The notes below the pieces were generated by a model. It was not told the origin of the DNA. It was given only the letters and a program-made list of their open reading frames with translations, and did no database searches. A stretch of 31,164 nt of DNA, from IMG/VR virus record IMGVR_UViG_3300010353_002388, positions 1 to 31,164 of that record; one strand, written 5' to 3'. The first letter of the stretch is position 1. Every line of letters begins with the position of its first letter. The translations under genes were made by a program, and so were the position numbers. Of this stretch, positions 2,874 through 20,935 are shown one piece after another. The stretch is from a virus.

Positions 2874-3230
2874 TTACTCTAAATATTCTCTTATTTTTTC
2901 TTTAGCTTTTTCCAATTTAGTAAAGGTCATTTGCCTATCCATATATGTTGTAGAAGCAAAATAATATTCTAATCCAGATTTTACCCAAGCCAAAGAATAA
3001 GCATCTAATTGATATTTGTCCTTGGAAGATTTGATAATTTTTTTATCCTTAAAAACAGAAACTACTACCATTTCTCCGGCTTCAGTAGTTTTATCATCAG
3101 TAATCCTAGGTTCTAAAGAAGGATCAATTTCTTTAAAAGCCGCCATAAGTTTTTGTGCTTCTCTAGCATGCTTATTTCCGATGTTCATAGAATCCTTAGG
3201 ATCGATACCTCTTACAAATTGTGCTCTCAT
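2874..3230 (-). CDS. hypothetical protein with N-terminal FERG-type tag (single module)
   Basis: Starts MRAQFVRGIDPKDSMNIG, a variant of the recurring F-x-RG-x-DPK-x-S-x-x-IG tag; ATGA overlap with the upstream gene. Confidence 0.75.
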   Translation of the reverse strand: MRAQFVRGIDPKDSMNIGNKHAREAQKLMAAFKEIDPSLEPRITDDKTTEAGEMVVVSVFKDKKIIKSSKDKYQLDAYSLAWVKSGLEYYFASTTYMDRQMTFTKLEKAKEKIREYLE

Positions 3231-4006
3231 CTTATTTTAAGATTTCTTTTCTTCAACCCATCTAATCCTTCAGACTCCCATATTTCTTTTACCCTGGAAT
3301 AGTAAATGTAAAATTTATTTATATATTTTTTCTTTTGGGATTCGGAGATATATTCCCATGGTTCAAATCCCTTTTTAAACCAATATAACTGATCATTCCA
3401 ATCATAAAATACATAATCCCTATTTTTCTTTTCCATAGTTTGTTCCAATCCAGCCCAATAATGGCCGGAGATTGCTTCAGAAAAATAAGCATTTAGTTCG
3501 ACAGGGTCCAGATAATATTTGGCTACCTCAGCATCATAGTTTATTCCAGAATTTGATAGAATCTTTCCCTGCAATCCATTATATCCGGATCTTTGATTTT
3601 TTCCTCCACTTATCCAATAATCATAAGCATGCTGTAATTCATGTAATAAATTTTCTCTAGAGCAAAAAATTATAAAGCCTGATTTAAATACCTTATATTT
3701 TTCTAATGACTCCGGTGTAAATACGTTCTTGTAATCTGGAGGATAAATGATTGCACCAGCTTCCTGCCATTCTTCGTCGGATATATCACCGTAGATTAAT
3801 CCTATTCCGCTTTGAATAAATTTATCTATTTTTTCATATTTCTTAGAATCGACTATATTTCGAATATCAAATTCATCAGAATCCTCTTTAAGAGGATTTA
3901 ATCTCTTTATATTTTTTTCCTTAAACCAGGAAAAGATCTCAAAGGAAACTTTATGTAATTCCTTTAAACTATTATAATCCTCATTTAAAACAAATTGAGC
4001 TCTCAT
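3227..4006 (-). CDS. putative zincin-like metalloprotein (HExxH)
   Basis: LLHELQHAYD motif and downstream YYLDPVELNAY; N-terminus MRAQFVLNE shares its leader with the next gene. Confidence 0.6.
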   Translation of the reverse strand: MRAQFVLNEDYNSLKELHKVSFEIFSWFKEKNIKRLNPLKEDSDEFDIRNIVDSKKYEKIDKFIQSGIGLIYGDISDEEWQEAGAIIYPPDYKNVFTPESLEKYKVFKSGFIIFCSRENLLHELQHAYDYWISGGKNQRSGYNGLQGKILSNSGINYDAEVAKYYLDPVELNAYFSEAISGHYWAGLEQTMEKKNRDYVFYDWNDQLYWFKKGFEPWEYISESQKKKYINKFYIYYSRVKEIWESEGLDGLKKRNLKIR

Positions 4007-4009
4007 AAA

Positions 4010-5560
4010 TTAATAAATAGTTCCCAAAATACATAAAATATCTTCTGTAATTTGGTTTTTAATATAAATTTCTCTAGTCGATGATCCAATTAACTGGAAT
4101 TTTCCCACTTCATCTTCTTTATCATATACCCAATCTTCCCTTTCGATATATTGATCAAGAATTAAATCATTTGGATTTAATGGAATATCTTCTGGATCAT
4201 TAGGCCAAATGCCTACCCCAACTTTTTGCTCTGATGTTTGTAACATTTTAGCTGCTGCTGTAAGTAAATTATTTTGTTCTCCAGCAAACAGATTTTCAAA
4301 CCATGGATATTTTTCACAAGCTTCCATAAAAGGCATTGAAGGAATAGTAGCAAAGAAATTATTTTTATTCTTGCCAATATTCATAGCTTTTTTAGGATCC
4401 ATCCCTCTTTCAAAATTTACTGCTTCACTTACAAAATTTGGAAATGCTCCTATATTTTTAAAATATTCTTTGAAAGGCCCTTTTATTTTATATTTTATCT
4501 TGTATACAGCGGATCTTTTTTCTTCATATTCTCCTGGGAATTGTAAAAATTCATCAATACCATATCCCTTTAAAATATCCTCTATCCAATTTTTTGGATA
4601 AACTGAACTAAAAATATAATAGTCTTCACCCATCGGATAAAATCCCCATAGAGTTTGCATATCTCTTTTGCTACCTAATTCAATTTCATTATGATGTATA
4701 TTTTTTAATTTATTGAGTATTCTATTTTTTGTTCCTATATCTATAGAAGCTTTTGGATCTAGTCCTCTTTCAAAATCCAATGATTCATCAATTTTTCCTC
4801 CCCATTGAGCTATTATTTCATTTGCAGCTTCTTGGGGTGATTTTCTTCCGCCATAATTTAAATTAGCAAATGGTTTTCCGGGTTTATTCCATTTTATAGG
4901 TGTAAAATAATATTGATTGTCGTCTTTAGATTCGAAAAATTCAATGCCATAATTATAAGAAGACGTAGGAGGGATCCAAGTAGCTCGGATTCCCGTTTGA
5001 AGAAGAAATGTGGCTTTGCGAACATCGATTTTACCACCATATTTCTTTTGAATATCACCAAAAATATTTTTGAGTTCTTCTCTAGCTTTTTCAAGCATTC
5101 GATTATGGTAATGTCCTATTTTTAAAGAATCTTTTGGCTCTAGACCTCTTTCAAAATTTATGGATTCATTTACTTCAGGGTCTTTCAGATAAACTATATA
5201 AGGTTTTCGAGAACGATCAAATTCCAAAATTCCTTTATTTTCTAGTTCATCAAAAATCCTTCTCATCGTAAGAGATGGGATTTCTCTCTCCGGGCGAATT
5301 TCTGGAAACGGAGCAAAATTACCATGAGTTATCAGATGATTAAGCATTTTTACCTGATAATCTATAGTCCAATCGGGCTGTCTCGGTAAGTTTTTAACAA
5401 TATAAGGCTTGAGAGAAGTCTTTCTTAAATATTGAATAGCTTCTTCGGGTGAATATGGAGTATTGGCGGGATATATTCTATCCCAAGTATTTTCATATCT
5501 TGAAAGACCAATATCCATTGCTTTTCTAGGATCTTGGCCCTTTATAAATTTAGCATCCAT
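4010..5560 (-). CDS. four-module protein with FERG-type tags (putative head-packaged polyprotein)
   Basis: Tags at aa 1 (MDAKFIKGQDPRKAMDIG), 132 (ESINFERGLEPKDSLKIG), 259 (ESLDFERGLDPKASIDIG) and 379 (EAVNFERGMDPKKAMNIG); the sequence between tags is unrelated. Confidence 0.75.
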   Translation of the reverse strand: MDAKFIKGQDPRKAMDIGLSRYENTWDRIYPANTPYSPEEAIQYLRKTSLKPYIVKNLPRQPDWTIDYQVKMLNHLITHGNFAPFPEIRPEREIPSLTMRRIFDELENKGILEFDRSRKPYIVYLKDPEVNESINFERGLEPKDSLKIGHYHNRMLEKAREELKNIFGDIQKKYGGKIDVRKATFLLQTGIRATWIPPTSSYNYGIEFFESKDDNQYYFTPIKWNKPGKPFANLNYGGRKSPQEAANEIIAQWGGKIDESLDFERGLDPKASIDIGTKNRILNKLKNIHHNEIELGSKRDMQTLWGFYPMGEDYYIFSSVYPKNWIEDILKGYGIDEFLQFPGEYEEKRSAVYKIKYKIKGPFKEYFKNIGAFPNFVSEAVNFERGMDPKKAMNIGKNKNNFFATIPSMPFMEACEKYPWFENLFAGEQNNLLTAAAKMLQTSEQKVGVGIWPNDPEDIPLNPNDLILDQYIEREDWVYDKEDEVGKFQLIGSSTREIYIKNQITEDILCILGTIY

Positions 5561-6738
5561 TATTTATCTCTTCCAAAGCGGAAGAAGCTAATTATTTTAA
5601 GTAGCGGAAGATAACTTCCGGTAAGTTTAAAGAGGTTTCCTTCAAATTTAAATACAATTCCTTCTACAGGAACTATTGAATCCCATCCTCCAGCTCTAAT
5701 AAATCTGTCATACTGAATTCTTAAGTTTTCAGATTTTTCTCCTTTATACTCTTTCAATTTATTTATCCCTGTTTCCGCTTTATTAGATATGATTTTTTTG
5801 GATTCTTCTGGATTAGAGCAAGCAATATCTTTTAGGTTTTGAAGAATTTTTACCCCCACTTTTGATAAGAGTTCAATAATTATCTCAAGGAATTCAGTTC
5901 GGGTCTCTTCAATTGTTGAATCCACCTCTCTTACCCAGGTAGCTAATCTTGAATTTACCCCAACTAAAAGTTTCGTAATATTTCTGGATTTATCTAAATA
6001 CGCCCATCTTTGAATAAGTCCTCTTCTTAATCCTGGGTCTTCTTCATTATACATATTAAATTCAAAATCTATGAATTCTTCTAATTCTATTGCTAGAAAA
6101 TCTTTTAAAGTATTTCCTTCTACCAAATTTCTTTCATACATTAAATCATCCAATTCATTAAGGAATAGAGACGGATCTATAACTGAAAAAGAAACTTTAT
6201 TAGTTTTATCGACATCAAAAGTAGTTTTTGCCCCATTCTGGGCATCTTTAATAAGTTCTAAAAATTCGTCTAGATTTCTATCGACAATTTTTCCTTCCGT
6301 TTGAACATTATGAATTCGAAGTTGGCTTTTTCCATAATGGATAATATTTTCCATTAAAGGAGTCAGTAATTCCATATTCAACCAATATTTTCCATCACAG
6401 AAGAAATTTTGGAGAATTTTTTCCTCTATTGGAACGAAAATCAGTTGTAAATCTTGAGCAGCTGTAGCATAAGACTCCTTGGATTCCGGGGTTTTCATAT
6501 AATCACCTACAAGATCCCAGCGAATAGCTTCAGCTCCGTTATTTCGAACTTGTTTAGGAGTACGAGCAATATAAACATGACCATTTTTATAAGTGGCCAT
6601 TATATTTTGTCCGTCTAATTTTTCAGATGGATTTTCAAGAGTTCCATAGCAAGCTCTTGTAATTATTTCTCTTATCTGTCCGAATGTTAAATCTGTATTT
6701 TCCCAAGGGGATAAAATGTGTCCGGCTGATCCTGCCAT
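5560..6738 (-). CDS. ligase/nucleotidyltransferase-like protein with KxDG motif (start corrected to MAGSAGH)
   Basis: MAGSAGHILSPWEN N-terminus, SEKLDGQN (motif I-like), VEGIVFKF and FKLTG near the C-terminus. ATG 6738 follows TAAT of the extended upstream gene, so the track's 43-aa extension from 6867 is probably spurious. Confidence 0.6.
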   Translation of the reverse strand: MAGSAGHILSPWENTDLTFGQIREIITRACYGTLENPSEKLDGQNIMATYKNGHVYIARTPKQVRNNGAEAIRWDLVGDYMKTPESKESYATAAQDLQLIFVPIEEKILQNFFCDGKYWLNMELLTPLMENIIHYGKSQLRIHNVQTEGKIVDRNLDEFLELIKDAQNGAKTTFDVDKTNKVSFSVIDPSLFLNELDDLMYERNLVEGNTLKDFLAIELEEFIDFEFNMYNEEDPGLRRGLIQRWAYLDKSRNITKLLVGVNSRLATWVREVDSTIEETRTEFLEIIIELLSKVGVKILQNLKDIACSNPEESKKIISNKAETGINKLKEYKGEKSENLRIQYDRFIRAGGWDSIVPVEGIVFKFEGNLFKLTGSYLPLLKIISFFRFGRDK

Positions 6739-6739
6739 A

Positions 6740-7539
6740 TTATGATCTTTTACGTGTCCAAGTTTTCTTTTTTTCGTTCCATTCCCAATCTTTAAGAGGC
6801 TCATCGTCCTCATCCTCGACAATCGGAAATTGTGCTTTATAATTATATCCTGCTTGATAACGATCATATCCTAAAGGAGAACTTTCTGTAGGTGTTCCTG
6901 ATGTGTGAAGAGCTTCTGTTACAGCATCGTTTTCAGTATCAGTTACAGCATCATTTTCTGGTAAAGAAATATTTTGTTCTAATATATCCCATATAAAAGA
7001 TACTGTTCTTCTGTTGAATCAGGATAACCTGCCATAAAATTTTCGATATTTCCCTCAATAAGATCCTGTCTAAGAACGCTCGCCGAAATAGGTTCTCCTT
7101 CGTGTTCGTCGGTTCGTCCTCTAAAATGCAAGGGTTCAATATTTACAGATAATTGGACAATATCAACTCCTTCTCTATAAAATTTTCCTTCTGGCGAATG
7201 TTTTTTGGCAAAGTCTGTGATCCTTTTAGCATTTTCTTCTTCTTTACTTGAAGCGGCAAGGGTATAAGCTCCTTTATCAGCTTCTTCCATAATCTTATAA
7301 GCTGCTAATACCGGAGAAGGCCAAGGAACACCTTGAACTACTACTTTTTTCATATCCTCAGTTAATTTCTCGAGCATTTCTACAGCTTGAGATTGGACAA
7401 TTCCGTCACGAACCCCTGGTCCTACAAGGACCCAGATTTCTTTTACTTCGGGAAGTTCTGCATATTTTTTAATAAGATCAATATGCCCTCCATGAGGGGG
7501 TTTAAATCCACCGGGATATAAAACAGTTACTTTTTCCAT
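6740..7539 (-). CDS. HxGH nucleotidyltransferase (cytidylyltransferase-like), apparent frameshift near 7003
   Basis: YPGGFKPPHGGH and ISASVLR motifs. The frame stops at TAG 6979, but a -1 frame from ~7003 continues VSFIWDILEQ...KTWTRKRS to TAA 6740-6742, one base before the next ATG. Confidence 0.75.
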
Positions 7540-8393
7540 TCTTCAACTTCTTTTGGTATTGAGAGATTTTGCTCTTCGAGGCATTCAACAAATCGATTGA
7601 TGATGCCTTCTCGTTTATTTATCCACTTAAAATTAGGGGACATAACTATATCCCAGAGTTTCTCAAAAGTATTAATATCGCTTGGTTTATAGTGTTCCCC
7701 GACAGTTAAATCCGTAACCTCCTGGGGATCATTTGTAATAAAGAAATCAAAGCCTTCTACATTTTTACCTTTTTTTACTAATCCCTTTTTGCCCATGAAA
7801 TTTTTTCTTACCCGAGAAACACCAAAGGGATACCTTAAAATATTTACTTCTATTTCTTCAATACCACCATCTTCCGTAGTTTTAGTAATTTCTTTTGTGG
7901 GCTCTGTGATAAGAGCCATAAGAAGAATATTCCGATAATAACCCTTATATTTTGATTCTTCCTTTCGAAAATCCGGAGAATGATATATAAATCTTGACCA
8001 GTAGAGATTGGTGGATAACATTAAATCGATCTGAACCAAATCCTTTTCATCCGGAAATATTTCCCCGCAATTTTCAAGACTTTTAGATCCTCCGATAGGA
8101 CAGCCAAAAGAAACAATTCTGAATCCATAGTTCACCTTTGTTTCGAATCCCATTCCTTCGAGATCAAGTCTTAAAAGATTGAGTTCAATATTTTTTGGCA
8201 TAGAGACAGCAATATCAATATCTCCGTGTGTTTCCCCTTCTTTTTTCTTTCCATAAGAACCCAATATTTCTACATCTTTATCTTCTATTGGGATAACTGT
8301 TAGCCGAGGGAAAACCTCTTGCCTTATCCATTTGATTGTTTTTTCAGCCTCTTCAAAAGTAACTGATCGAGATTTTACGGCATTACCTCCCAT
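7527..8393 (-). CDS. Pol-beta superfamily nucleotidyltransferase (start corrected to MGGNAV)
   Basis: LGSYGKK...GDIDIAV (GS/DxD) and third Asp in VQIDLM; ATG 8393 lies downstream of a TAnnTTTG element. Confidence 0.78.
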   Translation of the reverse strand: MGGNAVKSRSVTFEEAEKTIKWIRQEVFPRLTVIPIEDKDVEILGSYGKKKEGETHGDIDIAVSMPKNIELNLLRLDLEGMGFETKVNYGFRIVSFGCPIGGSKSLENCGEIFPDEKDLVQIDLMLSTNLYWSRFIYHSPDFRKEESKYKGYYRNILLMALITEPTKEITKTTEDGGIEEIEVNILRYPFGVSRVRKNFMGKKGLVKKGKNVEGFDFFITNDPQEVTDLTVGEHYKPSDINTFEKLWDIVMSPNFKWINKREGIINRFVECLEEQNLSIPKEVEEWKK

Positions 8394-8407
8394 AATATAA
8401 TTTTTTA

Positions 8408-8415
8408 CAAATATA
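8408..8415 (-). promoter_or_regulatory. Bacteroidota-type -7 promoter element (TAnnTTTG)
   Basis: Minus strand TATATTTG, 14 nt before ATG 8393; no clear -33 TTTG found. Confidence 0.4.
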
Positions 8416-8417
8416 CA

Positions 8418-8450
8418 CAAAAATGGGATAAGTTTTATTCTTATCCCGTT
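8418..8450 (-). terminator. intrinsic terminator
   Basis: AACGGGATAAG-AATAAAA-CTTATCCCATT plus T run after the 8488 stop. Confidence 0.7.
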
Positions 8451-8487: not shown

Positions 8488-9414
8488 CTAGACCTGTTGC
8501 GGAAGATCCGCAGGTATGGCATCGATTGGTTCTTTTTCTTTTTTAACTAGATTAACAACTTTTCTTGAAGTTCTATCTGGATCATTTTCTTTATCCGGAT
8601 GCCATGAATAAACACCTTTAGTAAAATTAACTTGGAAAGGTTCTTTTAATTTCATAGCATATTTCTTTCCCTCCCCTGGTTTTACATAAGCAATTGTCAT
8701 GTGAGGATGATAATCAGGAAAACTTTGTGTATTCGGTATTTGCATAAAAATATCTCTATATTTCTGCAGTTGCCCGGTCAAAGGTAAATTATATTTTACC
8801 ACATCATATTCTTCCCCCTCAAAAACCCCTATTTCACTTACAGTTAAAGTTACAGGTTTCATATAATATTCAAGCATTTCCCCCATTCTCTGAGGATCTA
8901 CTTCTTCTTCGTGAATTCCGTAGAGAATAGTTACATGAGGGGTTTCTTCTAATCCGTACGAATCATCATAAGGTTTAATAAAAACATCATCTTCTTCTAT
9001 TCCAGCTGTATGATATTCATTCCAATTTTTAATATCAGCATCCATCATAATGCAACCGTATCTCGGCTCACTTGCTGGTTTTTGATGCTGTTCATTTAGC
9101 CAACGACCAAATCCCATGAATCCCTCTTTTAGGGAAACTTCTTTATGCTTAAAAGCTGCACCATCATCTGTTTTCATTGAGGGAACATATTTATATTTTG
9201 GGTTTTCTTCTTTGATATATTTCATTAATCTGGAGCCAAATCCTTGCCTCCTAAATTCAGGTCTTACAAAAATATGACTTACTGAAAGCTCTCCATCATA
9301 AAGAACATATTCAACAATACCTACGATTTCTCCGTCCAAATAAATACCTGCTTCACAATTTAATTGTCCTGAATAGGCATCAATAACTTCATTTGTATAG
9401 GTTATCTTAGGCAT
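8488..9414 (-). CDS. GNAT acetyltransferase fused to a 2H phosphoesterase (Acb1/gp57B-like)
   Basis: N-terminal VSHIFVRPEFRRQGFGSRLM (acetyl-CoA motif A); C-terminal paired HxT motifs ETPHVTILYG and DYHPHMTIAY; linker SLKEGFMGFGRWLNE. Confidence 0.8.
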   Translation of the reverse strand: MPKITYTNEVIDAYSGQLNCEAGIYLDGEIVGIVEYVLYDGELSVSHIFVRPEFRRQGFGSRLMKYIKEENPKYKYVPSMKTDDGAAFKHKEVSLKEGFMGFGRWLNEQHQKPASEPRYGCIMMDADIKNWNEYHTAGIEEDDVFIKPYDDSYGLEETPHVTILYGIHEEEVDPQRMGEMLEYYMKPVTLTVSEIGVFEGEEYDVVKYNLPLTGQLQKYRDIFMQIPNTQSFPDYHPHMTIAYVKPGEGKKYAMKLKEPFQVNFTKGVYSWHPDKENDPDRTSRKVVNLVKKEKEPIDAIPADLPQQV

Positions 9415-9425: not shown

Positions 9426-10247
9426 TTAAGAAATCGAAGATAAAGTTTTGAGCATTTCTATAACTTCAGGCTGCGGATGTAAATCTGTTTTTGCATTTGC
9501 TGGGCGATACGATACATGTGTCCATACCCCTGGTTCCCCGGAAAGAGCCTTTTGAGAAACATCCCACATATCTTCGTTATATTTTACAGGGATACCATAC
9601 TTATCTTTCCAGAAAAGGATTAATTCCCCTGCTGTTCTGATTTGCTCAAGGGTATATTTTTCATAATAATTATATCCCCTAAATCCATCTGGATAATATT
9701 GCATTGGAACATCAACTGCATTGCCATAATAAGTATAGTATTTTCCTACTTCAGTCTGAATCATCTTAGGTGTTCCATCAGCTTTCTTACCAAATTGTTT
9801 GATTGTTCCATCACCGGGAATTAAGTATCCCCAATTATCAATTTCAATTCCTATAGATTGACTATCCCTTGCTTTATTTCCTATTCCAAGATGCCAAGCC
9901 CAATATTTTGAAGAAAATAATTGATAAGGAGTTCCATCTCTATCAATAATAATAGCGGTTCCTACTACAGAATTATCATCTTCCCAAGTAGCTATATCAC
10001 CGGTTACACCATTGCCACTTACAGTATGATGTAATACAATTTGTTTTTTAGTAAATTCTTCTTTGAAATAATCCTTCTCCGGGAAGGGAACAACTTTTAT
10101 CTTATGAAGTTCTATGGGTTTTAAATCTGACCACATATTGGAAATTATTTTAGTTTCAGAAGTAGATGCTTCTGGTGTATGCTCATAAAATTTCCAATCA
10201 TTTTTAAACGGAAAAAAGAACCAATTGAAAGGAAATGATGATGACAT
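9426..10247 (-). CDS. N-acetylmuramoyl-L-alanine amidase (Amidase_2-type endolysin)
   Basis: IVLHHT, AWHLG, SIGIEIDN, THVSYR..KTDLHP motifs. Start set at MSSSFP (10247) to avoid overlap with the HAD gene; the track starts at 10307. Confidence 0.82.
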   Translation of the reverse strand: MSSSFPFNWFFFPFKNDWKFYEHTPEASTSETKIISNMWSDLKPIELHKIKVVPFPEKDYFKEEFTKKQIVLHHTVSGNGVTGDIATWEDDNSVVGTAIIIDRDGTPYQLFSSKYWAWHLGIGNKARDSQSIGIEIDNWGYLIPGDGTIKQFGKKADGTPKMIQTEVGKYYTYYGNAVDVPMQYYPDGFRGYNYYEKYTLEQIRTAGELILFWKDKYGIPVKYNEDMWDVSQKALSGEPGVWTHVSYRPANAKTDLHPQPEVIEMLKTLSSIS

Positions 10248-10258
10248 TTTTATTTTAT

Positions 10259-10687
10259 TTATTCCATCAATTTTTTCTTTATTAACCTTTCGCATTTGGA
10301 TTTCCAATTAGCTCCAAGAGAACTAATGGCTTTGGTTTTTGTATATTTAAGAATATTTTTATTTTCTATCCAATCATCATCAATATGCCACAAGAAATCA
10401 TCATGGAACTTTAGGAAGGGCCACTTATCATCCATGTTTGTAAAATGAATTCTTTCTTCGGGAATGCCCGAGGAATTAGCAACTTCCTTTAAATCATTAT
10501 TGGTAATATCCACATTGATTGAAGTCTGGAAAAATTCTTGATATTTTTTATTATCTCCAAATCTTGAAGTTACTATCCAAACCTCATATCCTTTTTCTAT
10601 TAATTCCTTGGCATAATTCTGAATGCTTTTTCTATCCAGTGTTCCGTCGAAATCAAAAGAAATTTTTATATTAGACGGGGCTAACAT
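10259..10687 (-). CDS. HAD-superfamily phosphatase
   Basis: SFDFDGTL (motif I), IVTSR (motif II), HIDDD (motif IV). Confidence 0.8.
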   Translation of the reverse strand: MLAPSNIKISFDFDGTLDRKSIQNYAKELIEKGYEVWIVTSRFGDNKKYQEFFQTSINVDITNNDLKEVANSSGIPEERIHFTNMDDKWPFLKFHDDFLWHIDDDWIENKNILKYTKTKAISSLGANWKSKCERLIKKKLME

Positions 10688-10997
10688 GTTTTAAAAGTTT
10701 TTCTCCTGCCGAAGTAATTATCCATCCTTCTTCGGTTTTTTCTATTAAACCTACCTTCGAAAATAGTGCCAAAGAAATAGCAGCAACTTCTTTTGCATCT
10801 TGAACAGCATCTTTTATTTCTCCCTCTGAAAGAAGAGGGGTTGCTCCTGTTTCGAGTTTTTTAGTTACTCTTGCTTTAATTGAAGCAAAAACCGATTCTC
10901 TTTTCATAAAAGGAACATTGATTTCTTTATCAAACTCTCCTCTTGCCAATCGGTCTTTCATTTTATTTAAAAATACTTGTGCAGATTCTGGATTCAT
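10671..10997 (-). CDS. hypothetical protein, possible winged-helix C-terminus
   Basis: ...LFSKVGLIEKTEEGWIITSAGEKLL resembles a wHTH wing; no firm family. Confidence 0.55.
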   Translation of the reverse strand: MNPESAQVFLNKMKDRLARGEFDKEINVPFMKRESVFASIKARVTKKLETGATPLLSEGEIKDAVQDAKEVAAISLALFSKVGLIEKTEEGWIITSAGEKLLKHVSPV

Positions 10998-11212
10998 AAT
11001 ATTATGTTTTCGCTATTTATTTGTTATTATACTCATAAAAAGTTAAAAGATTATTTCTTAACGGGGTTTTAACGCCGGAGTTAAAATAAAAAATTAACTA
11101 AATTTTAACAGGAGGATAAAAACTATTTCGAGGGGGGTCATACAATAAGTGCCCAAGAGAGAAAGAAAGAATCTCCTTAAGAGAAAGAGAATAAATAAAG
11201 AAAAACCCCTTA

Positions 11213-12137
11213 ATGAAGTTAGTTCAGGAATCATTGAATTTTGAAAGAGGGCAGGATCCAAAAGCTTCCTTAAAAATTGGATTTGGAAGATATTCTAATG
11301 AACATGGCGATGGGGTTTCAAAAGCACTTATAAAATTAAAACCTTATTTAAATAAATATGGGTTTCAAATGGTTGAAGAAAATCTGGAACCACCCATTAA
11401 ATTAGTTTTTTCAAATGATAACGAGGATAAAATAAGAATTGCCCAGAGAAATACTTTAGGGGATGGTATTCATGGGGTTCGTGTTGAATTCAGTCTTCGG
11501 AATGGACTTACCTTTTTTGATCCAACAACTAAATTTGAAAATGAACAGGTAGAAAGGATGGATCCGGAAGAAATTTTCCAAAAGCATTTTGGAAATCCTA
11601 TTAAAGAAGGATTAAATTTTGAAAGGGGAAATTTTCCGAAAAAAGCCTTAAAAATAGGAATGACCGAACTTCTTCAAGATATGGAGGAAAAATTCAAAAA
11701 ATATTTTCCCGGGGTAATATCCAGATATTCATATTTTCATCAGGACAAAAAAACCGGGGATGGCGATGTATTTTTTGCTCATCTTCTTACACGTAGTGTT
11801 TTTTGGAATAGAACAGTAAGGGAATTTTTTGAAAACGATCCATATTTTGAATTAATCTCTTATAAACCTCTAGATGTAAATTCTTCGGGGGCAAGCGATG
11901 ATGCTATTTTAAAAATTAAATTCAATCCTAATAAATTAAAAGAATCTGTCAATTTTGAAAGAGGAATTGATCCTAAATCTTCAATGAGAATTGGTAATGC
12001 AGCTATTCTTCCGCAGATGATTTGGAAGGGACTGGGCAAATACAGAAAACACTGATCCCGATTTCATACATTGGCCGGAGCCCATTGTAAAAGAGTTAGA
12101 AGATCAATTAGGGGAAAAGCGCTGGCAACCTTATTAA
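11213..12137 (+). CDS. three-module protein with FERG-type tags; probable frameshift near 12030
   Basis: Tags at aa 6, 132 and 244. The track ORF ends at TGA 12055; a +1 frame from ~12030 reads DWANTENTDPDFIHWPEPIVKELEDQLGEKRWQPY* and ends at 12137, overlapping the convergent resolvase stop. Confidence 0.7.
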
Positions 12138-12751
12138 TTTTTTTCTAAATAAGTTTGTACAGCCCAATAAGCGTCAACCAAATCATCTAAATGATCTATC
12201 CAGGTACCTGTTTTCTTTTGAAATAAAGAAGGGTTAGAAAAAATTATTTGTGCAAAAGGACAGGAAGTTCGAACAAAAGCATCTATCATATCTTTTTTAG
12301 TTTTCCCTTTCCCCGAACATCCTGCAGTTTTCTTTATTGTGATAGGAGCATAAGTAGTCATGTTTTCAAATGGGATACAATTGTCAAAAAGATCCCTCAT
12401 AAGCATATACTTATAACCACCCAATTGGATACCCATATTACCGGAGGAATTAAATGATAACCCTTCAAAAACTATTTGCCATTTTTTCATCTCACCATTT
12501 GGCAAACTAGTAATAATTAAATCGGAAAGATACATGGAGTTAGATACTTCCCAACGCATTTTTTCTGAAGAATCCTTCCCTTTATATTTTTGATCTCTCC
12601 TATCTATAAGATTTATGCCCGCGTCGCGATAGATTTTTTTAATCTTATCGCTAAGATCAAAAGGCCAAGAATAAAAAGTATATTTTCCGTTTTGATATAA
12701 ACAAGCAGCAGGCTTATTGATTGAAAAATCAAAGCCAATTATTGTATTCAT
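12134..12751 (-). CDS. RuvC-like Holliday junction resolvase
   Basis: IIGFDFSINKPAAC, IVFEGLSF, PITIKKTA, DDLVDAYW: RNase H-fold catalytic D/E/D/D pattern. Confidence 0.8.
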   Translation of the reverse strand: MNTIIGFDFSINKPAACLYQNGKYTFYSWPFDLSDKIKKIYRDAGINLIDRRDQKYKGKDSSEKMRWEVSNSMYLSDLIITSLPNGEMKKWQIVFEGLSFNSSGNMGIQLGGYKYMLMRDLFDNCIPFENMTTYAPITIKKTAGCSGKGKTKKDMIDAFVRTSCPFAQIIFSNPSLFQKKTGTWIDHLDDLVDAYWAVQTYLEKN

Positions 12752-12771: not shown

Positions 12772-13086
12772 TTATCTCTTTTTTACTAATAAAGAGTCTA
12801 ATTGTTTTTGCTGATAATCAATTAATTCTTTATTTTTTCTTATATGCTCTAAATTCGAAGTAGTATCTATTCTTAAATCCGTGATTCTTTTTTGTTCTTT
12901 TTTAAAAGTATCTGTAATAACAATAAGAGTTTCTGATGGGAATGATATTTCTTCAGATTGCAATGCATACTCAATTGTATCCAAAGAAAATGCTAGCGAA
13001 TCAGAAGTCACCATCTCAGCTTTTTGATATGACCCTCCACATCCATAAAGAAAAATTACTAAAAATAAAAATACTAGTTTTTTCAT
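12772..13086 (-). CDS. lipoprotein, o-spanin candidate
   Basis: MKKLVFLFLVIFLYGC signal peptide with lipobox Cys16; C-terminal coiled coil; ATGA overlap with the upstream membrane gene. Confidence 0.55.
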   Translation of the reverse strand: MKKLVFLFLVIFLYGCGGSYQKAEMVTSDSLAFSLDTIEYALQSEEISFPSETLIVITDTFKKEQKRITDLRIDTTSNLEHIRKNKELIDYQQKQLDSLLVKKR

Positions 13087-13346
13087 TGTTGTTTCATATA
13101 TTGAATGATCTGGCCATTTAATTCAGCTTGTTTTTGAAGAGTTTTATTGATCTCTTTTAATTCTGCTTTTAATTCATTAACGGATTCAATGGTTTCTTCT
13201 AAAACCACTTTTGTTTTTGTTTTATTAGAAGTTGAAGTTGCAACCCAGCCAATGGATGTTGCAATAAAAAGAATGATGAATATAACATCTCTAAACTTCT
13301 CCATAAAAAGTTTCCATAAATTCTTTTCTTCTTTTGCAGCTGGCAT
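13083..13346 (-). CDS. single-TM coiled-coil protein (i-spanin or holin candidate)
   Basis: TM VIFIILFIATSIGWVA followed by a heptad-rich tail. Confidence 0.5.
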   Translation of the reverse strand: MPAAKEEKNLWKLFMEKFRDVIFIILFIATSIGWVATSTSNKTKTKVVLEETIESVNELKAELKEINKTLQKQAELNGQIIQYMKQQ

Positions 13347-14340: not shown

Positions 14341-15276
14341 ATGGAAAAAGAAAAGTTTATTTGTCAAATATGTCAGAAGGAATACCCTACTTTATCTCAT
14401 TTATCAAAGCATATTAATACTCATAACATATCAAAAAAAGAATATTATGATAACTATTTGAAGAAAAAGGGGGATGGGGTTTGCCCTATCTGTCATTCTT
14501 CTACCCCTTATACAAATAAATGGCAAAATGCTTATAAAATCTATTGCTCAAATGAATGCAAAAAGGCCGGGGTTCCTAAAAATGTTGAAAGGACCTCTAT
14601 TGAAAGATATGGGGTCTCAAATGTAAATAAGTTGAAAGATATTCGAAATAAAATTAAAATAACTAATGAAGAAATTTATGGAAATTCTTGTCCTATGCAA
14701 AATTTAGAGATTCAAAGGAACATAAGAAGAAAGAATCTGGAAAGATTAGGGGTAGAATTACCCTTTCAATCTAAAAAAATTCAGAAAAAGGGGGCAATAA
14801 CAAGAAAAGAAAAATATGGCGGGGAATATACATTCCAGTCTTCAGAATTAGTAGAAAAAATTCATAAAACAAATATGTTAAGATATGGAATGCCTAATCC
14901 TATTCAAAGTTTGGGGGTTTTTTCAAAACAACAATTATCTGGTCTTTTTATAAAAAGATATAAAGAATCTTCTTTATTTTATCAAGGGTCTTATGAATTA
15001 GATTTCTTAGAAAAATATTATGATTTATTAAATATCCAAAGAGCTCCTTTTATAAAATATAAATTTAGAGATAAAGAAAGAATTTATTATCCTGATTTTT
15101 ATATTCCCTCTATAAATTTAATTATAGAGGTAAAAAATAAATATTTAGCCAAAAGGGATAAACAAACAATTAGGGCTAAGAAAAAAGCTGTTATTCAGCA
15201 AGGATTTCAATTTATTATGATTGTAAATAAAAATTATGAAGAATTTGAAAAACTTATTTCCTCATCATCTCTATAA
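14341..15276 (+). CDS. putative free-standing homing endonuclease (Zn fingers plus PD-(D/E)xK)
   Basis: C2H2 finger CQIC...H.NTH, CPIC...CSNEC, repeated T/S-x-x-E-R/K-YG units, C-terminal YYPDFYIPSINLIIEVK. Confidence 0.75.
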   Translation: MEKEKFICQICQKEYPTLSHLSKHINTHNISKKEYYDNYLKKKGDGVCPICHSSTPYTNKWQNAYKIYCSNECKKAGVPKNVERTSIERYGVSNVNKLKDIRNKIKITNEEIYGNSCPMQNLEIQRNIRRKNLERLGVELPFQSKKIQKKGAITRKEKYGGEYTFQSSELVEKIHKTNMLRYGMPNPIQSLGVFSKQQLSGLFIKRYKESSLFYQGSYELDFLEKYYDLLNIQRAPFIKYKFRDKERIYYPDFYIPSINLIIEVKNKYLAKRDKQTIRAKKKAVIQQGFQFIMIVNKNYEEFEKLISSSSL

Positions 15277-16024: not shown

Positions 16025-16032
16025 GAAATATG

Positions 16033-16065: not shown

Positions 16066-16121
16066 GTATAAACTTCGTAAGAAAGTTTTTGCAAGAATAT
16101 ATAAAAACAAATAATTAAATT

Positions 16122-16478
16122 ATGGCTACAACACCACAACAATTTTTTTCAAAAAACATGAAATGGTTTGCTTTGGCTTTATTGTTTTTACTTATGATTA
16201 AGAGTGTGCAGAGTTGCAATAGAAAAACTCTTTTGAATATGGGATCAAAACAATACATTGAGCAAATAGATTCTCTAAAAACTCTTTACAATAATTATTA
16301 CAGGGATTCCCAGGACAGTATAAAGAAATTGAATTTCGAACTTAAACTTGCAAACGAACAGGTAAATGCTGCTAACAAAAGAGCTGAAGCTGTTCAATCT
16401 GCCGTTGAAAAAGTTCGTTCAAATACAACTATTACTGTTAAAGGCGCTGAAGAAGTTAAAGACACCTCTAAAAAATAA
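16122..16478 (+). CDS. membrane-anchored coiled-coil protein (spanin-like or lipoprotein)
   Basis: TM WFALALLFLLMI, possible lipobox VQSC, long coiled coil. Confidence 0.5.
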   Translation: MATTPQQFFSKNMKWFALALLFLLMIKSVQSCNRKTLLNMGSKQYIEQIDSLKTLYNNYYRDSQDSIKKLNFELKLANEQVNAANKRAEAVQSAVEKVRSNTTITVKGAEEVKDTSKK

Positions 16479-16483
16479 ATACA

Positions 16484-16765
16484 ATGAACGAAATTACTCC
16501 TGAATTAAGAGAAAAAATTGCGCTATATTCAAAACATTTGCATGAAATTATTCATACAGATATTAGCGATGAAATGCTAAATGCTGTCAATATCAAAAGT
16601 GTAAGTATGATTAATGAAGTCATGACTGAATACCCAGCTGAACCACTTTTAATTGTTAAAAAATTAGATGGAACAGAAGAGCGCATCTGGGGATTTGTAA
16701 AAATCCCAGAATACTTGAATAATCTCATAGATCAAATTGAAAATTCAGGATACGTTAAAATATAA
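16484..16765 (+). CDS. hypothetical protein
   Basis: 93-aa ORF tightly packed in the plus-strand run. Confidence 0.6.
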   Translation: MNEITPELREKIALYSKHLHEIIHTDISDEMLNAVNIKSVSMINEVMTEYPAEPLLIVKKLDGTEERIWGFVKIPEYLNNLIDQIENSGYVKI

Positions 16766-16775
16766 AAATCATTAT

Positions 16776-18029
16776 ATGAATTTAAAAAATTTTAAAATTA
16801 CAAACAAAGGTCTTTATTGGGGGCTTATTGTTACATTTGCCCTCCTATATTTGTGTGTAGGATTTGTATCAACTTTACACTCAATTACATTTTTCAACTT
16901 AGCGAATACTGTTGGCCTTGCAGTACTTCTTGGTATTACTTATGAAATTGGCCAAGCGTCAGTTTTATTTTCGATACTTATGACTAAGAATAAGGATAGA
17001 TTTTTGCCATGGGCTTTAATGTTTTTATTAACAGCGTTACAAGTCACAGCGAACGTTTATGCCTCATTTAAATTTATGGCAAATTCAGGCTCTAATGATT
17101 GGCAATATTGGCAAAAATCAATATTGATTGGTGTACAAGCTGAGAATGCTGAAATGTATCAAGTTATTATATCATGGATAGCGGGTGCATTACTTCCTAT
17201 AGTTGCTCTTGGTATGACAGCATTGGTTGCTAATAATATCAAAATGATTACTGAGGAAAATGAAGCTAATAAGGAGGAGCCAAAGGAAGAGAATAAACCA
17301 AGAGAGGAAGAGCTAAAGGAAGAGAATAAACCAAAGGAAACTTCAGATTTAAGCGAAACTATCGGAAAGATCCTTGATAGAGATAATCATTTGGAAAAAC
17401 TTAAGAATACCCTTCTTTCTACTGCTGGCCCAGCTACAAAATATGAGGAAAATCCAATTATTGGTGAAGGAGGAGTTGAAATTATTAAAGACCCTATCTC
17501 TATTGAATTAAGAGATCACGAGAAAGCAAACGAAGAATTTGAAAAGGAATATTTTCAAGATAATATGACTCCTCTTCAAAGATCTGAAAAAGAAATAGAT
17601 GAGATAATCGAAAATGAGGTAGAAAGAAGGCTTAGGGAAAAAGAAAGTGCTAGGGGAATAGACAGTGCTTTTGATGTACAGGAAGGAATGGATTATCTTG
17701 ATCGAGAAGCAAATTCATTAATCCCGGAAACAACTTCAAAAATAATTGATGCCCATCCTTCTCAAATTATCATTCCAGAAGAAAATTTGCCAGAAGTAAG
17801 TAATGAAATAGAAGATGTTACTTCTCCAGAAATAATGGAGCAAGCTGTTGAAGCTACAATAAAAGAAGCGGAGGAATCCCGAATTACAGAGGAAAAAACC
17901 CCTGTTACAAAAACAAGGGGGTGGCATCTTAAGAAAACTTATGTAGATTCGAATGGAGATGTTTATCATTTTGGCAAGATCTCGGACGATAAAGAATTAA
18001 AAGAACCCCAGGACTCAAAAAAAGCTTAG
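16776..18029 (+). CDS. multi-pass membrane protein with long acidic tail
   Basis: About four hydrophobic segments in the first 150 aa, then a Glu/Lys/Pro-rich region. Start moved to MNLKNF to remove overlap; may be continuous with 18038. Confidence 0.7.
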   Translation: MNLKNFKITNKGLYWGLIVTFALLYLCVGFVSTLHSITFFNLANTVGLAVLLGITYEIGQASVLFSILMTKNKDRFLPWALMFLLTALQVTANVYASFKFMANSGSNDWQYWQKSILIGVQAENAEMYQVIISWIAGALLPIVALGMTALVANNIKMITEENEANKEEPKEENKPREEELKEENKPKETSDLSETIGKILDRDNHLEKLKNTLLSTAGPATKYEENPIIGEGGVEIIKDPISIELRDHEKANEEFEKEYFQDNMTPLQRSEKEIDEIIENEVERRLREKESARGIDSAFDVQEGMDYLDREANSLIPETTSKIIDAHPSQIIIPEENLPEVSNEIEDVTSPEIMEQAVEATIKEAEESRITEEKTPVTKTRGWHLKKTYVDSNGDVYHFGKISDDKELKEPQDSKKA

Positions 18030-18037
18030 GAGCGAGC

Positions 18038-18319
18038 ATGGATGAAGGGGTGAAAGAAGAGCTCGCTCCTGATAAAGAAGAAATAAACCCCGTAGAGGAA
18101 TTGAAAAAACCTTCTCCTGGTCAAGAACTTATTGAACGTATTAAAAAAGAAGATTTTGAAAAGAAGAAAAAGAAGGAAGCAGAAGAATATGTTCCCTCTA
18201 TTATAATAGATGGGGTAGAAGTTATTGATGCTAAAGCTATTCCAAAAAAAGAAAAAATAAGGCTCGATAAGTTTGGAATTCCTATTCCTGAAAATCGAAG
18301 AACCTGGGATAAAATCTAA
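18038..18319 (+). CDS. Glu/Lys-rich hypothetical protein (possibly the frameshifted end of the upstream gene)
   Basis: Composition matches the upstream tail; A7 run at 18017-18023. Confidence 0.5.
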   Translation: MDEGVKEELAPDKEEINPVEELKKPSPGQELIERIKKEDFEKKKKKEAEEYVPSIIIDGVEVIDAKAIPKKEKIRLDKFGIPIPENRRTWDKI

Positions 18320-18507
18320 ATATCAAAAGGACCCCTAAATACATTGGCACAACTCATAGGCACGTGCCTGCTAAGTTTAAATCCCTAAGTCATGTTAATC
18401 CTTGCCTTAGGGATTTGTTGTCTTAAACAGCAAATAATAACTTTTTATAAAAATCCATTCTATTCTTTTTATTCACGAATAAATAATAAAAATAAAAGGC
18501 TAATAGC

Positions 18508-20052
18508 ATGGCTACAGATGTATTTAATAATTCTAGCAATAACTATGTTTATCCCGCTCTTTCACCATGTGCGGGGGCTGGAGATGATTCATACCTACAA
18601 TTTTTACCAAATAAATCTGTAGGAGTTATACAGGGAAGCAACACTCTTGCTTCAATATCTTTTTCAGATATTAAAATTCCCGTTTCCTCTTATAGTTCTC
18701 AAATGAAAGTTGTAGAACCAGGAGAAGTAATTTTTATCCCTGGATTAACGAAGGGTCTTGATTTTAGATCGCAAGCATTTACTATTCCTGCATTCACGGA
18801 TAATGATTTGAATCCATATTTTATGACTGTCGATCTTTCGATTGGCTTTTATAAAAATTTCAAATATTATCAATTTAATGTTGAAGCTTCCGCAGACTAT
18901 TCAAATAATATCACAATAGATCAAGCTTTAGATATAGCTTTATCCAATATTCAAGCAAAGATTACAACTACTTATGATCCTAGTGATCTTTCTTTTACCG
19001 GAACTCAGGCAGGATGGGATTTTAATATTTCCAACATTGAACTAACTCTTATAGATGCTTCTGAAAATGCTAGTTCGCCTTTCCCTGCTATTATCATAGG
19101 GGGAATAAATGTTCCTCAAATATTTGAATTAGAAGAGGATCTTTCTAAAATGGTTCTTTATGCTAAGTATCCTAATTCAGCAATGCAAGGAATTATTTTA
19201 AAAGCTACATATCCAGCAACAGAATTAAGTTATAATAAATGGATTTATCTTAACCATGTTACAGATATTGTTACCATTTTTGAGCCTATTCAGATTGACA
19301 ACTTTTTAAAAAATATACAAAAATTTACAGAGATAACATTTGATCCTTCGATTTCTTTTGGACCATTTATAACAGATTTTACAGATGCTTCCGTTGGTTT
19401 GGATGCTAGCTCTGGAAGTGAATCCTATGTTCTTGCAGTAGATTGCTCTTACGCATATTATCAGCTAGCGGATTCATCTTTATTTAATTCTAGATTAAAT
19501 CTTGAATCAACTTTAAATGGAACTATTGAAAATTCCTGGGTAAACAAAGATTATCCTTTACTTCCTTATGGGGATCCTTCAAGCAGAGTTGAAATAGCTT
19601 TATCTATTGTAAACGACTGTTCTATAAACAATGCTTTTATTCAGGATAGCTCCATATTTACATCTTTCTTAGAAGACGTTTCATTATCTGGATGTACACT
19701 TTACAATTGCTCTTATGATCCTAGTATGGTTACCTTATCCAATTGTACTCTTATTACAATTAATGAAACTATAGATTGTTCTATTTCTTATGAGACTGAT
19801 TCATCAACCTATTATACTCCGGTTGTTAAAACAATTGAAGTTGGTATGAGTGGTTGCTCTAATGCTACTCAAATGAGCGCAGGAGATTATCTTGAATGGA
19901 TTACAGAAAACGAGGATTGGAAAAAAGTTGGAGATGCGTATATTTGGACTTCAGCTCCTGATAATGGGGATACAAGGAATTTAATTGATGGATTTTATGT
20001 TTATAATCCTCAAACTTTCCCAGTTCAAATAGATTATTTAATCTTTGTATGA
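18508..20052 (+). CDS. probable virion structural protein, D-x-S rich
   Basis: Ser/Thr/Asn/Asp-rich, beta-like, 514 aa; preceded by GAATAAATAA. Confidence 0.55.
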   Translation: MATDVFNNSSNNYVYPALSPCAGAGDDSYLQFLPNKSVGVIQGSNTLASISFSDIKIPVSSYSSQMKVVEPGEVIFIPGLTKGLDFRSQAFTIPAFTDNDLNPYFMTVDLSIGFYKNFKYYQFNVEASADYSNNITIDQALDIALSNIQAKITTTYDPSDLSFTGTQAGWDFNISNIELTLIDASENASSPFPAIIIGGINVPQIFELEEDLSKMVLYAKYPNSAMQGIILKATYPATELSYNKWIYLNHVTDIVTIFEPIQIDNFLKNIQKFTEITFDPSISFGPFITDFTDASVGLDASSGSESYVLAVDCSYAYYQLADSSLFNSRLNLESTLNGTIENSWVNKDYPLLPYGDPSSRVEIALSIVNDCSINNAFIQDSSIFTSFLEDVSLSGCTLYNCSYDPSMVTLSNCTLITINETIDCSISYETDSSTYYTPVVKTIEVGMSGCSNATQMSAGDYLEWITENEDWKKVGDAYIWTSAPDNGDTRNLIDGFYVYNPQTFPVQIDYLIFV

Positions 20053-20492
20053 TAGCCAAGAAGGTTTTTGAAAATATAGAATTTAAAAGAGGAGATCCCC
20101 CTCAAAAAACCTTAAAAGTAGGAAAACATAGAACTACTTCTAAAACTTTTAAGGATTATGAAGGAGAAGAACAAACTATTGAAGTCGATCGAGAAAATAG
20201 TTTTGATCTTTATAATATGAGGGTCCGGTTAGTTTTTAATAAAATAGAAGGTGATGAGTTTGCTGATGTTTTCATCAATGGAGAAAAAAATGATTTTTCG
20301 GTTTTTAAAATAACTCCTTTTGATTATGAATTTAAGAGCAGCGCATACGGATTTCCTGTTGCAAAAGATGAAAAACATCTTAAGGAATTAAAAGAAAAAT
20401 ATTCTCATTGGATTGCAATATCTAATGATTATTCTAGGGAAAATAAAGATCCTTTTATTGCGGTTGCAGAATTAATACTTTTTACATACTAA
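20049..20492 (+). CDS. hypothetical protein with N-terminal FERG-type tag
   Basis: MIAKKVFENIEFKRGDPPQKTLKVG. Confidence 0.7.
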   Translation: MIAKKVFENIEFKRGDPPQKTLKVGKHRTTSKTFKDYEGEEQTIEVDRENSFDLYNMRVRLVFNKIEGDEFADVFINGEKNDFSVFKITPFDYEFKSSAYGFPVAKDEKHLKELKEKYSHWIAISNDYSRENKDPFIAVAELILFTY

Positions 20493-20935
20493 TGAAAGCA
20501 CTAAAAGTATTCGAAGCATATAACTTTCAAAGAGGCCAGAATCCAAAAAGATCTCTTTCTTTAGGAAAATACAAGTCCCTTCTTTATAGGGCTTTAACTG
20601 ATCCAGATAATGAAGTTAATGGAGAAGCCTTTCGTGATTGGATGGAGACAAATCCTACTCTTGCGAAAGCTATAGAATATGATAAAAATCCTTTACCTTT
20701 GGATCAATATTTAACCTTTGATTTGGACTATTATTGCGAAAATAATGATATAGATCCAGATGATCTCAAAGATGATTTTGATTCTAAAGAAATTTTTTCA
20801 AGGTTAAAACCTGGAGAATTAATGGTCTTTAGAGGAATTATTAAAAGTTTACCCGATCAAAATAAAGTTTTATATTATAGGGGAGGAAATATTGATGGGT
20901 TTATTACTCGAAAAGATTGGGTTGGTATAAGATAA
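20492..20935 (+). CDS. hypothetical protein with N-terminal FERG-type tag
   Basis: MKALKVFEAYNFQRGQNPKRSLSLG; TAATG overlap with the previous gene. Confidence 0.7.
   Translation: MKALKVFEAYNFQRGQNPKRSLSLGKYKSLLYRALTDPDNEVNGEAFRDWMETNPTLAKAIEYDKNPLPLDQYLTFDLDYYCENNDIDPDDLKDDFDSKEIFSRLKPGELMVFRGIIKSLPDQNKVLYYRGGNIDGFITRKDWVGIR

Follow-up and report, generated by a model that had tools for sequence, protein, structure and literature searches.

The internal proteins of T-even phages are diverse defence proteins that have a capsid-targeting sequence (CTS) alone in common (PMC3012670), and in T4 this 10-residue address ends in a site for the prohead protease gp21, which cleaves after L/I-X-E (PMC9026906). 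Ejection and inner-body proteins of the giant phages phiKZ, 201phi2-1, and SPN3US are likewise cut, after S/A-x-E, by gp21-like proteases (PMC9026906, PMC7411985), and the polyvalent proteins combine 2 to 15 unrelated domains in one polypeptide, which is predicted to be packaged, to reach the host together with the DNA, and perhaps to be split into parts (Iyer et al. 2017, PMC5512222). Here, we describe the FERG tag, a conserved 20-residue peptide that heads ten unrelated protein modules in the IMG/VR virus record IMGVR_UViG_3300010353_002388 (31,164 bp, the entire contig, hereafter the window) and thousands more in its relatives. This recurrence suggests that small, exchangeable proteins are probably loaded into the capsid of the phage and that chains of them are probably cut apart.

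The tag joins a presumed cut site, [IVL]-x-E, to a 17-residue stretch, the handle, that would remain on the downstream module. As with T4 IPI, IPII, IPIII, and Alt and their CTS, small and diverse cargo has only a short conserved N-terminal address in common, the site matches, in sequence, the L/I-x-E of the S77 prohead protease, and the address persists at loci that are otherwise hypervariable between relatives. The tag bears no sequence similarity to the CTS, however, and its arrangement differs: the CTS lies before the cut and is removed, whereas the handle, on the far side of the presumed cut, would stay on the product; T4 cargo comes as single genes, whereas up to 12 modules are fused here per open reading frame (ORF); and T4 has four cargo proteins, whereas these phages have tens to about 100 modules per genome. 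The likeness to phiKZ, 201phi2-1, and SPN3US consists in their tens of megadaltons of head protein and the many post-Glu cuts made by a diverged gp21 homolog, but their substrates carry propeptides with no shared retained tag, form no interchangeable chains, and are cut at S/A-x-E, not I/V/L-x-E. Tagged proteins resemble polyvalent proteins in holding 2 to 12 modules, drawn from 250 sequence families, whereas polyvalent proteins are built of MPTase, ART, ParB-like, and LPD conflict domains with no tag between them; no such enzymatic domain was found among 65 multi-tag proteins, in which Pfam found Ank (8 proteins), GNAT (3 proteins), and two single weak matches. In encapsulins, a short conserved cargo-loading peptide, usually C-terminal, brings unrelated cargo into the interior of an HK97-fold shell; this analogy is one of mechanism only, as the peptide differs in sequence, involves neither a protease site nor chains, and serves an encapsulin and not a phage capsid.

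The FERG tag and its modules

The full motif, [IVL]-x-E-S-[ILV]-N-F-E-R-G-x-D-P-K-x-[AS]-[ML]-x-I-G, occurs in exactly 10 copies, which lie in five ORFs at three loci. Locus A (2874-5560, minus strand) holds a chain of four modules, ORF 4010-5560 (516 aa), with the E or M of its tags at residues 1, 132, 259, and 379 (nucleotides 5507-5560, leaderless and beginning MDAKFIKG; 5114-5173; 4733-4792; and 4373-4432), and a single-module gene, ORF 2874-3230 (118 aa), whose leaderless tag at 3177-3230 begins MRAQFVRG. Locus B is ORF 11213-12055 (plus strand, 280 aa; tags at 11222-11281, 11600-11659, and 11936-11995), and locus C comprises two plus-strand single-module genes of 147 aa each, ORF 20049-20492 (leader MIAKKVFE, tag 20064-20123) and ORF 20492-20935 (leader MKALKVFE, tag 20507-20566). 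These copies, their positions, and their residue numbers had been reported in an initial annotation of the window and hold on rechecking, as does its statement that [VIL]-x-E precedes all eight Glu-initiated copies (VQE, IKE, LKE, VNE, IDE, VSE, VFE, and VFE). The two remaining copies, in ORFs 2874 and 4010, begin directly with M-x-A-x-F-[VI]-[RK]-G and have no leader. When a hidden Markov model of the 10 copies was run on a six-frame translation of the window, as that annotation had proposed, it recovered the same 10 (per-copy E values of 6e-9 to 1e-13), with the next match at an E value of 0.66. The description of ORF 11213 needs amendment: its three tags stand, at residues 6, 132, and 244, but it is not an intact three-module protein, because the third tag heads a frameshifted stub of 19 aa; the ORF thus has two full modules and a decayed third cassette.

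Over the 20-codon core, tag DNA has a mean nucleotide identity of 65%, third positions agree at 67% where the residue is identical, and the longest identical run is 16 nt. Such low identity and short runs indicate conservation at the level of the protein, as had been proposed, and not a DNA repeat. The sequence between tags had been described as unrelated, and the six full modules of the two multi-tag ORFs do fall into six different BLAST clusters, those of ORF 4010-5560 into four. None of the five tagged ORFs matches a Pfam or PHROGs family, and a full-text literature search gave no published description of the tag, in keeping with the earlier remark that it was not recognized as a described family.

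Outside the window, among 1.84 billion cluster representatives, a profile built from the ten copies matched 1120 at an E value of ≤1e-3 and 57 at ≤1e-30, with up to 12 tags per protein. Position frequencies were taken from 597 tags of 157 proteins (clusters <50% identical), anchored on the Phe as position 0. Upstream of this residue, position -6 is I/V/L in 77% of the tags, -4 is E in 94%, -3 is S in 65%, and -2 is I/L/V in 77%; from the anchor onward, the values are F 100% at 0, E 80% at +1, R 98% at +2, G 100% at +3, D 77% at +5, P 95% at +6, K 75% at +7, A/S 81% at +9, M/L 90% at +10, I/V/L 95% at +12, and G 97% at +13. Conservation ceases past +13 and, at internal joints, upstream of -6 as well; at these joints, E at -4 rises to 98% and the residue after the presumed cut (P1') is S in 77%. 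At these frequencies, [VIL]-x-E precedes the tag family-wide, though not without exception, as leaderless tags exist. The N termini fall into the classes M[KR]A[KQ]x[VI]xE (56 proteins), MKLVxE (25), MIV[RK]E (20), and leaderless MxAxF[IV][RK]G (8).

A degenerate DNA pattern located 74 related loci in IMG/VR with 155 distinct tagged ORFs, of which 117 bear a single tag, N-terminal in 104 of these 117 (median, 139 aa). Large contigs contain 18 to 36 tags each, about 1 per 4 kb, and one 46-kb contig has 36 tags within 20 kb. The window represents 8% of a genome by CheckV estimate, which implies a genome of about 400 kb, and at 1 tag per 4 kb such a genome would hold on the order of 100 modules.

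The modules themselves are small and highly diverse, as the initial annotation had supposed when it spoke of unrelated, swappable domains: 644 of them form 250 BLAST clusters, 158 of which are singletons, and the larger families occur at any position and in chains of any length. Profile-profile comparison (hhalign) of the 14 largest families gave a median probability of 0.2%, with 2 to 3 related pairs among 91. Tag-to-tag spacing has a median of 117 aa (5 to 95% range, 93 to 160), a narrow size that fits a size limit on ejected proteins, and one protein has two tags 8 aa apart with no module between them. The ankyrin matches fall wholly between tags, and GNAT forms an untagged first module of several tagged chains in relatives (P0047, P0056, P0066, and P0120), where it is 67 to 74% identical to the N-terminal GNAT domain of the window ORF 8488-9414. 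Isoelectric point and hydropathy show no distinctive bias among the modules. Roles in host takeover or anti-defence can only be inferred; the recognizable modules are ankyrin repeats and GNAT.

P0078, a relative with three modules, was modelled with AlphaFold (seven-row alignment; mean predicted local distance difference test score [pLDDT], 73). The model contains one ankyrin and two different beta modules at a pLDDT of about 80 to 94, with the ankyrin fold confirmed by Foldseek; its three tags score below 50 and, outside a four-residue helix at D-P-K-x, have an extended shape. A model of ORF 4010 computed without an alignment was uninformative (pLDDT, 34). Because confidently predicted, unlike folds alternate with low-confidence tags in P0078, the tag is predicted to be a flexible joint between independently folding domains and not a repeat of one fold.

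Close relatives gain and lose modules exactly at the tags. Two syntenic relatives were compared, G006, whose backbone proteins are 95 to 99% identical to those of the window, and G005, at 60 to 80%. At locus B, the G006 ortholog of ORF 11213 is a 92%-identical relative of 711 aa with six tags; the window lacks 1224 bp in comparison, and the left breakpoint is the last codon of tag 3, which leaves the 19-aa stub out of frame. In G005, the interval between the orthologs of ORFs 10671-10997 and 12134-12751 contains one module, so that locus B has one module in G005, two and a stub in the window, and six in G006. Locus C has zero, two, and three genes in the same order: the interval after ORF 18508 is empty in G005, which lacks ORFs 20049 and 20492, whereas G006 has copies of both (73% and 92% identical, respectively) and a third single-tag gene directly after ORF 18508. 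The gp32-side locus of G005 consists of an ortholog of ORF 2874 at the same place (59% identity) and a single module, without ORF 3227. Among database proteins 89 to 91% identical to ORF 11213, what follows the third tag differs, and modules seen elsewhere are reused; contigs from sludge and digester runs part from the window at 11936-12030, which is tag 3. Shuffling of modules between relatives, which the initial annotation had put forward as a check, is thus evident from breakpoints at tags among G005, G006, the window, and sludge contigs.

Presumed cut sites, head protease, and rival readings

A site that agrees in sequence with the gp21 rule stands before 8 of the 10 window tags, and its E and I/V/L recur at the family-wide frequencies given above. 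The gp21-like protease that the initial annotation had asked for is encoded in the tag-bearing relative G001 (133 kb, 34 tags), where the first ~270 residues of an 844-aa protein are an S77 head-maturation protease (PF03420, E value of 3e-16; phrog_207, E value of 2e-40). The gene (L081:10768-13302) lies directly upstream of the major capsid gene, and its C-terminal extension of about 570 aa, Lys/Glu rich with many [ILV]-x-E sites, is probably a fused scaffold. At the N terminus of the G001 major capsid protein, ALNE|AEMGG forms a T4-like LNE|AE site. Mature T4 gp23* starts AEIGGD after LNE, and the residue numbering in a PDB alignment (Gly27 of the mature chain) is consistent with that start. 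With this S77 protease and capsid site, a maturation system of the T4 type is present in at least one phage that bears the tag. No S77 protease was found in the window, which has no head genes, or in G005, G006, G008, or G009, all of them fragments estimated to be 8 to 18% complete, and G004 has a weak match.

If the modules meet such a protease, they might be expected to avoid its site. Compared with shuffled sequences, [ILV]-x-E-S inside modules occurs at 0.73 of the expected count overall and at 0.47 with one representative per family (11 versus 23; z, -2.7), and [ILV]-x-E-G occurs at 0.64, compared with 1.2 to 1.4 for [ILV]-x-D/Q/N-[SNAG]. This depletion is suggestive of exposure to an [ILV]-x-E protease, not decisive. 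Untagged ORFs of the same phages show the opposite, a 1.79-fold overrepresentation of [ILV]-x-E-S (z, 10), with 24% of the occurrences within the first 15 residues. Leaders of the form MK(K)LVxES[LIV] without the FERG core are found on a GH24 lysozyme, an AAA+ ATPase, a cupin, and ankyrin proteins, and FERG-less proteins that begin with MK(K)LVxES[LIV] or M[IL]IxES include L035:7736-9271, L020:1881-2699, L078:6110-6805, and others. The occurrence of leader and cut site without the handle speaks for distinct roles of the tag's two halves. Some of these FERG-less proteins, of 200 to 260 aa, carry another recurring sequence after the site (e.g., ESLxE[IL]FESPDEIS), which suggests several alternative handles behind one leader and cut site.

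Self-cleavage was also considered, by way of an acid-labile D-P bond, 2A-like skipping, or intein-like chemistry, and was rejected, as the tags contain neither a nucleophile that is conserved nor a motif that fits such chemistry.

Two of the three window loci also lie behind motifs resembling T4-type late promoters. The motif AATAAATA is present at 11190-11197 (plus strand), 23 nt before the ATG of ORF 11213, and at 18478-18485 (plus strand), 30 nt before ORF 18508, which opens the operon containing the two single-tag genes of locus C. Its core, NATAAATA, occurs in intergenic positions at 11021, 11190, 18478, 26501, 28595, and 31064, each 23 to 30 nt before a start codon, and the genes behind it are those for the sheath, the tube, a 973-aa tail-region protein, and ORFs 10671-10997, 11213, and 18508, so the two tag loci share the spacing of sheath and tube. 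This placement is consistent with a gp55-like late transcription system in a Lak-related phage. Contigs from RNA libraries of two studies fall on all three loci, with spans of 18509-20655 and 2880-4393; because RNA libraries can contain DNA, they lend only weak support to transcription. One DNA run, X2, has no contigs over ~18.7-21.3 kb, a hole without a bridging contig that we did not use as evidence.

We assign a probability of roughly one-half to the reading that these phages have a T4-like head-cargo system with in-frame chains of modules and a conserved handle retained after the cut. Under this proposal, the first part of the tag, [IVL]-x-E followed by S, N, or A, would be the cutting site of a T4-type (S77, gp21-like) prohead protease, and the second, [ILV]-N-F-E-R-G-x-D-P-K-x-[AS]-[ML]-x-I-G, a handle that stays on the N terminus of the downstream, independently folding module of about 100 residues. 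Modules would be encoded either as single small genes, with a leader of 5 to 8 residues (MKAKxVxE, MKLVxE, or MIVRE) as the counterpart of the T4 capsid-targeting sequence, or as in-frame chains of 2 to 12. The proteins would enter the prohead, where the head protease would remove leaders and cut every chain joint, and the freed modules would be delivered with the DNA. The handle may serve in docking, retention, ejection, or a step shared in the host, and the tag, as DNA and protein, would also be the joint at which cassettes are gained, lost, and exchanged. Somewhat bolder, and held with less assurance, is the generalization that a clade of ~400-kb sludge and digester megaphages may use an addressing grammar of leader, Glu cut site, and retained 17-residue handle by which interchangeable proteins of ~100 residues, on the order of a hundred in each genome and often translated as chains of up to 12, would be loaded, separated, and delivered. 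The retained handle would then be a new kind of signal, for docking inside the capsid, for ordered ejection, or for a common step in the host.

Several observations weigh against head cargo. The 17 best-conserved residues (-3 to +13) lie after the presumed cut, whereas the T4 address lies before it and is discarded, and three residues suffice for a gp21-type site, which by itself does not account for the handle. Two window tags and 8 of 157 family N termini are leaderless and have no Glu site. Late-promoter motifs are not enriched before tagged ORFs across all related loci (4 of 39 versus 46 of 288 others), and locus A is situated among gp32, primase, and RNA-repair-type genes. The depletion inside modules is modest (z about -2 to -3), with EN and EA not depleted; the protease is shown only in the more distant G001, as the window, G005, and G006 are fragments without head genes; and modules on the order of 100 per genome would be many for head cargo.

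Several of these points also speak for the tag as an adaptor with a function outside the virion, a reading that is unlikely but carries real weight. All tags would then bind the same partner inside the infected cell (a protease of host or phage, a chaperone, a polymerase, or a membrane machine), and the choice of target would fall to the module, as in F-box or ankyrin-PRANC proteins; chains would act as multivalent beads on a string or be cut by another protease, and [IVL]-x-E would be part of the binding motif. The most conserved residues do lie outside the three-residue protease site, motifs that take up their fold on a partner typically pair a low pLDDT with very high conservation, ankyrin modules bind proteins, and the unenriched late promoters, the replication and RNA-repair setting of locus A, and the leaderless tags, which work without a Glu site, all accord with an adaptor. 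Yet E at -4 in 98% of internal joints, with I/V/L at -6, is exactly the gp21 rule; the [ILV]-x-E-S leader stands on other proteins before different downstream sequence, which separates cut site from handle; [ILV]-x-E-S is depleted inside modules; the narrow module size would have no obvious reason; and two of the three window loci have a late or structural context.

That breakpoints coincide with tags, both in close relatives and in sludge populations, raises the further, rather improbable reading that the tag is mainly a recombination joint, a linker kept by gene conversion for shuffling and in-frame fusion whose peptide has no specific biochemical role. Regulatory cassettes flank shuffled ORFs in the hyperplastic regions of T4-type phages in an analogous way, and some tags at different loci match over 36 to 39 nt at 86 to 87% identity. 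Conservation at the protein level, with 65% nucleotide identity, identical runs of ≤16 nt, and synonymous variation, speaks against a joint of this kind, as do the five positions that are 95 to 100% invariant in 597 copies from clusters <50% identical and the single N-terminal tag of about three-quarters of tagged ORFs, which needs no fusion joint.

Locus C, considered by itself, would suit a tag that anchors small accessory proteins to the tail or baseplate instead of the head: a late-type promoter precedes ORF 18508, to which ORFs 20049 and 20492 are translationally coupled, the surrounding genes are those of tube, sheath, and tail, and RNA-library contigs span 18509-20655. We regard this as very improbable, because the other loci are not beside tail genes, there would be on the order of 100 modules per genome, the modules are ankyrin, GNAT, and small globular domains with no receptor-binding folds, G005 keeps ORF 18508 without either tagged gene, and the Glu cut site points to a head protease. 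Least tenable, and largely refuted by the present analysis, is the possibility, raised in the initial annotation and disposed of by structure prediction, that one fold is repeated throughout, with the tag built into its structure and the modules all descended, by far-reaching divergence, from a single domain: the uniform spacing of ~117 aa and the remote relationship of a few families (2 to 3 of 91 hhalign pairs) would agree with it, but all-alpha ankyrin and all-beta modules stand behind the same tag in one protein, the tags between these different folds model at a pLDDT of <50, the hhalign median is 0.2%, and two tags can lie 8 aa apart with no module between.

Phage lineage and neighbouring genes

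The window belongs to a T4-type myovirus (gp32, gp19-like tube, and sheath). It encodes a gp32-like single-stranded DNA-binding protein, a primase, ThyX, an amidase, and a GNAT plus 2H-phosphoesterase protein and, among structural genes, a gp19-like tail tube and a tail sheath, the latter with 43 to 45% identity to the Lak-A, -B, and -C sheaths across 91 to 98% of its length; the capsid protein of G001 is 48.6% identical to that of Lak. The Lak megaphages of Prevotella have genomes of ~540 kb, and the complete Lak-A1, -B2, and -C1 genomes (MK250016, MK250021, and MK250029) contain no FERG tag at an E value of ≤0.01, while the same profile detects tags in 9 of 9 IMG/VR relatives searched. As the Lak phages have the closest structural proteins among cultured or named relatives but these three genomes lack the tag, the tag system marks a sister group from sludge and digester samples, not Lak proper. 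Near-identical DNA is present in 14 DNA runs of metagenomes from activated sludge, sludge, and anaerobic digesters, spread over at least 11 studies, one run being possibly the window's own source; in run X3, the phage reaches a depth of about 95x. No cultured relative emerged from megablast and tblastn searches of 50,697 phage records with the region, ORF 11213, or the 22-aa tag.

At locus A, the minus-strand genes 5560, 4010, 3227, and 2874 form a translationally coupled cluster whose neighbours are RNA-repair-like genes, gp32, and primase: the start of ORF 4010-5560 overlaps the stop of the upstream 435-aa ORF (TAATG), and ORF 2874-3230 overlaps ORF 3227-4006 by ATGA. ORF 3227-4006 (259 aa, minus strand), an untagged gene between two tagged ones, has an HExxH motif (HELQH), matches phrog_15811 (unknown function), and shares its six initial residues (MRAQFV) with ORF 2874. 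Its sequence has no match in PDB and no homolog in 76 related loci, it is missing from the syntenic G005 locus, and its nearest named Atlas clusters, LPD23 and SprT-like, are weak (scores of <0.9). The protein is possibly a zincin-like peptidase. On the grounds just given, it was dropped as a candidate for a dedicated tag protease and is not a core part of the tag system.

Upstream of the tagged chain, 5560-8420 (minus strand) comprises the 435-aa ORF 5560-6867, which has a ligase-like K-x-D-G motif (EKLDGQN), the cytidylyltransferase-like ORF 6979-7539, and ORF 7527-8420 with an NTP_transf_2 domain, a possible RNA-repair cluster. ORF 8488-9414 (minus strand) fuses a GNAT acetyltransferase to a 2H phosphoesterase and weakly matches the anti-CBASS protein Acb1 (PF23474, E value of 3.6e-4). 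An amidase_2 endolysin (9426-10307, minus strand) lies near a small lipoprotein with the lipobox LYGC and an overlapping small membrane protein (12772-13086 and 13083-13346, minus strand); these two look like a spanin pair, which would make this a lysis region beside locus B. ORF 14341-15276 (plus strand), with a C2H2 zinc finger, DUF7487, and hints of a TnsA/PvuRts1I-like endonuclease, is 69% identical to its G006 ortholog between flanks of 98 to 99% and may be a mobile or homing endonuclease.

In the tail-gene region, the conserved ORF 18508-20052 (514 aa, plus strand), for which an Atlas search returned nothing, is coupled by ATGA to the first single-tag gene, and ORFs 18508, 20049, and 20492 overlap successively by ATGA or TAATG. 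They are followed by a conserved Gly-rich gene, ORF 20943-21695 (250 aa, plus strand), whose C terminus matches phrog_3666 (E value of 4e-14) and whose N terminus, MRAKKISDTINEWGG, resembles a degenerate leader and tag; its G005 ortholog starts MKAKTIQEALNEFGG and ends with a further leader-like sequence, VSESIEQLYE. Within the window, leaders with the [ILV]-x-E-S site are confined to FERG ORFs; ORFs 3227 and 20943 have a MRAxx[VI] start in common.

Meaning for giant phages

Should the adaptor explanation be the right one, the handle would be a widespread interaction motif whose partner is worth finding. If, instead, the tag does address head cargo, the principle of the T4 internal proteins would extend beyond four single genes and cover, in giant phages, a large payload of modules separated by a protease, and head cargo would become recognizable in metagenomes by a simple sequence rule, which 1120 protein clusters already match. 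As a natural tag of 20 residues, it would be a candidate for loading foreign proteins into capsids, and its hundreds of module families would amount to a catalogue of candidate effectors for the first minute of infection, directed against bacterial targets or defences.

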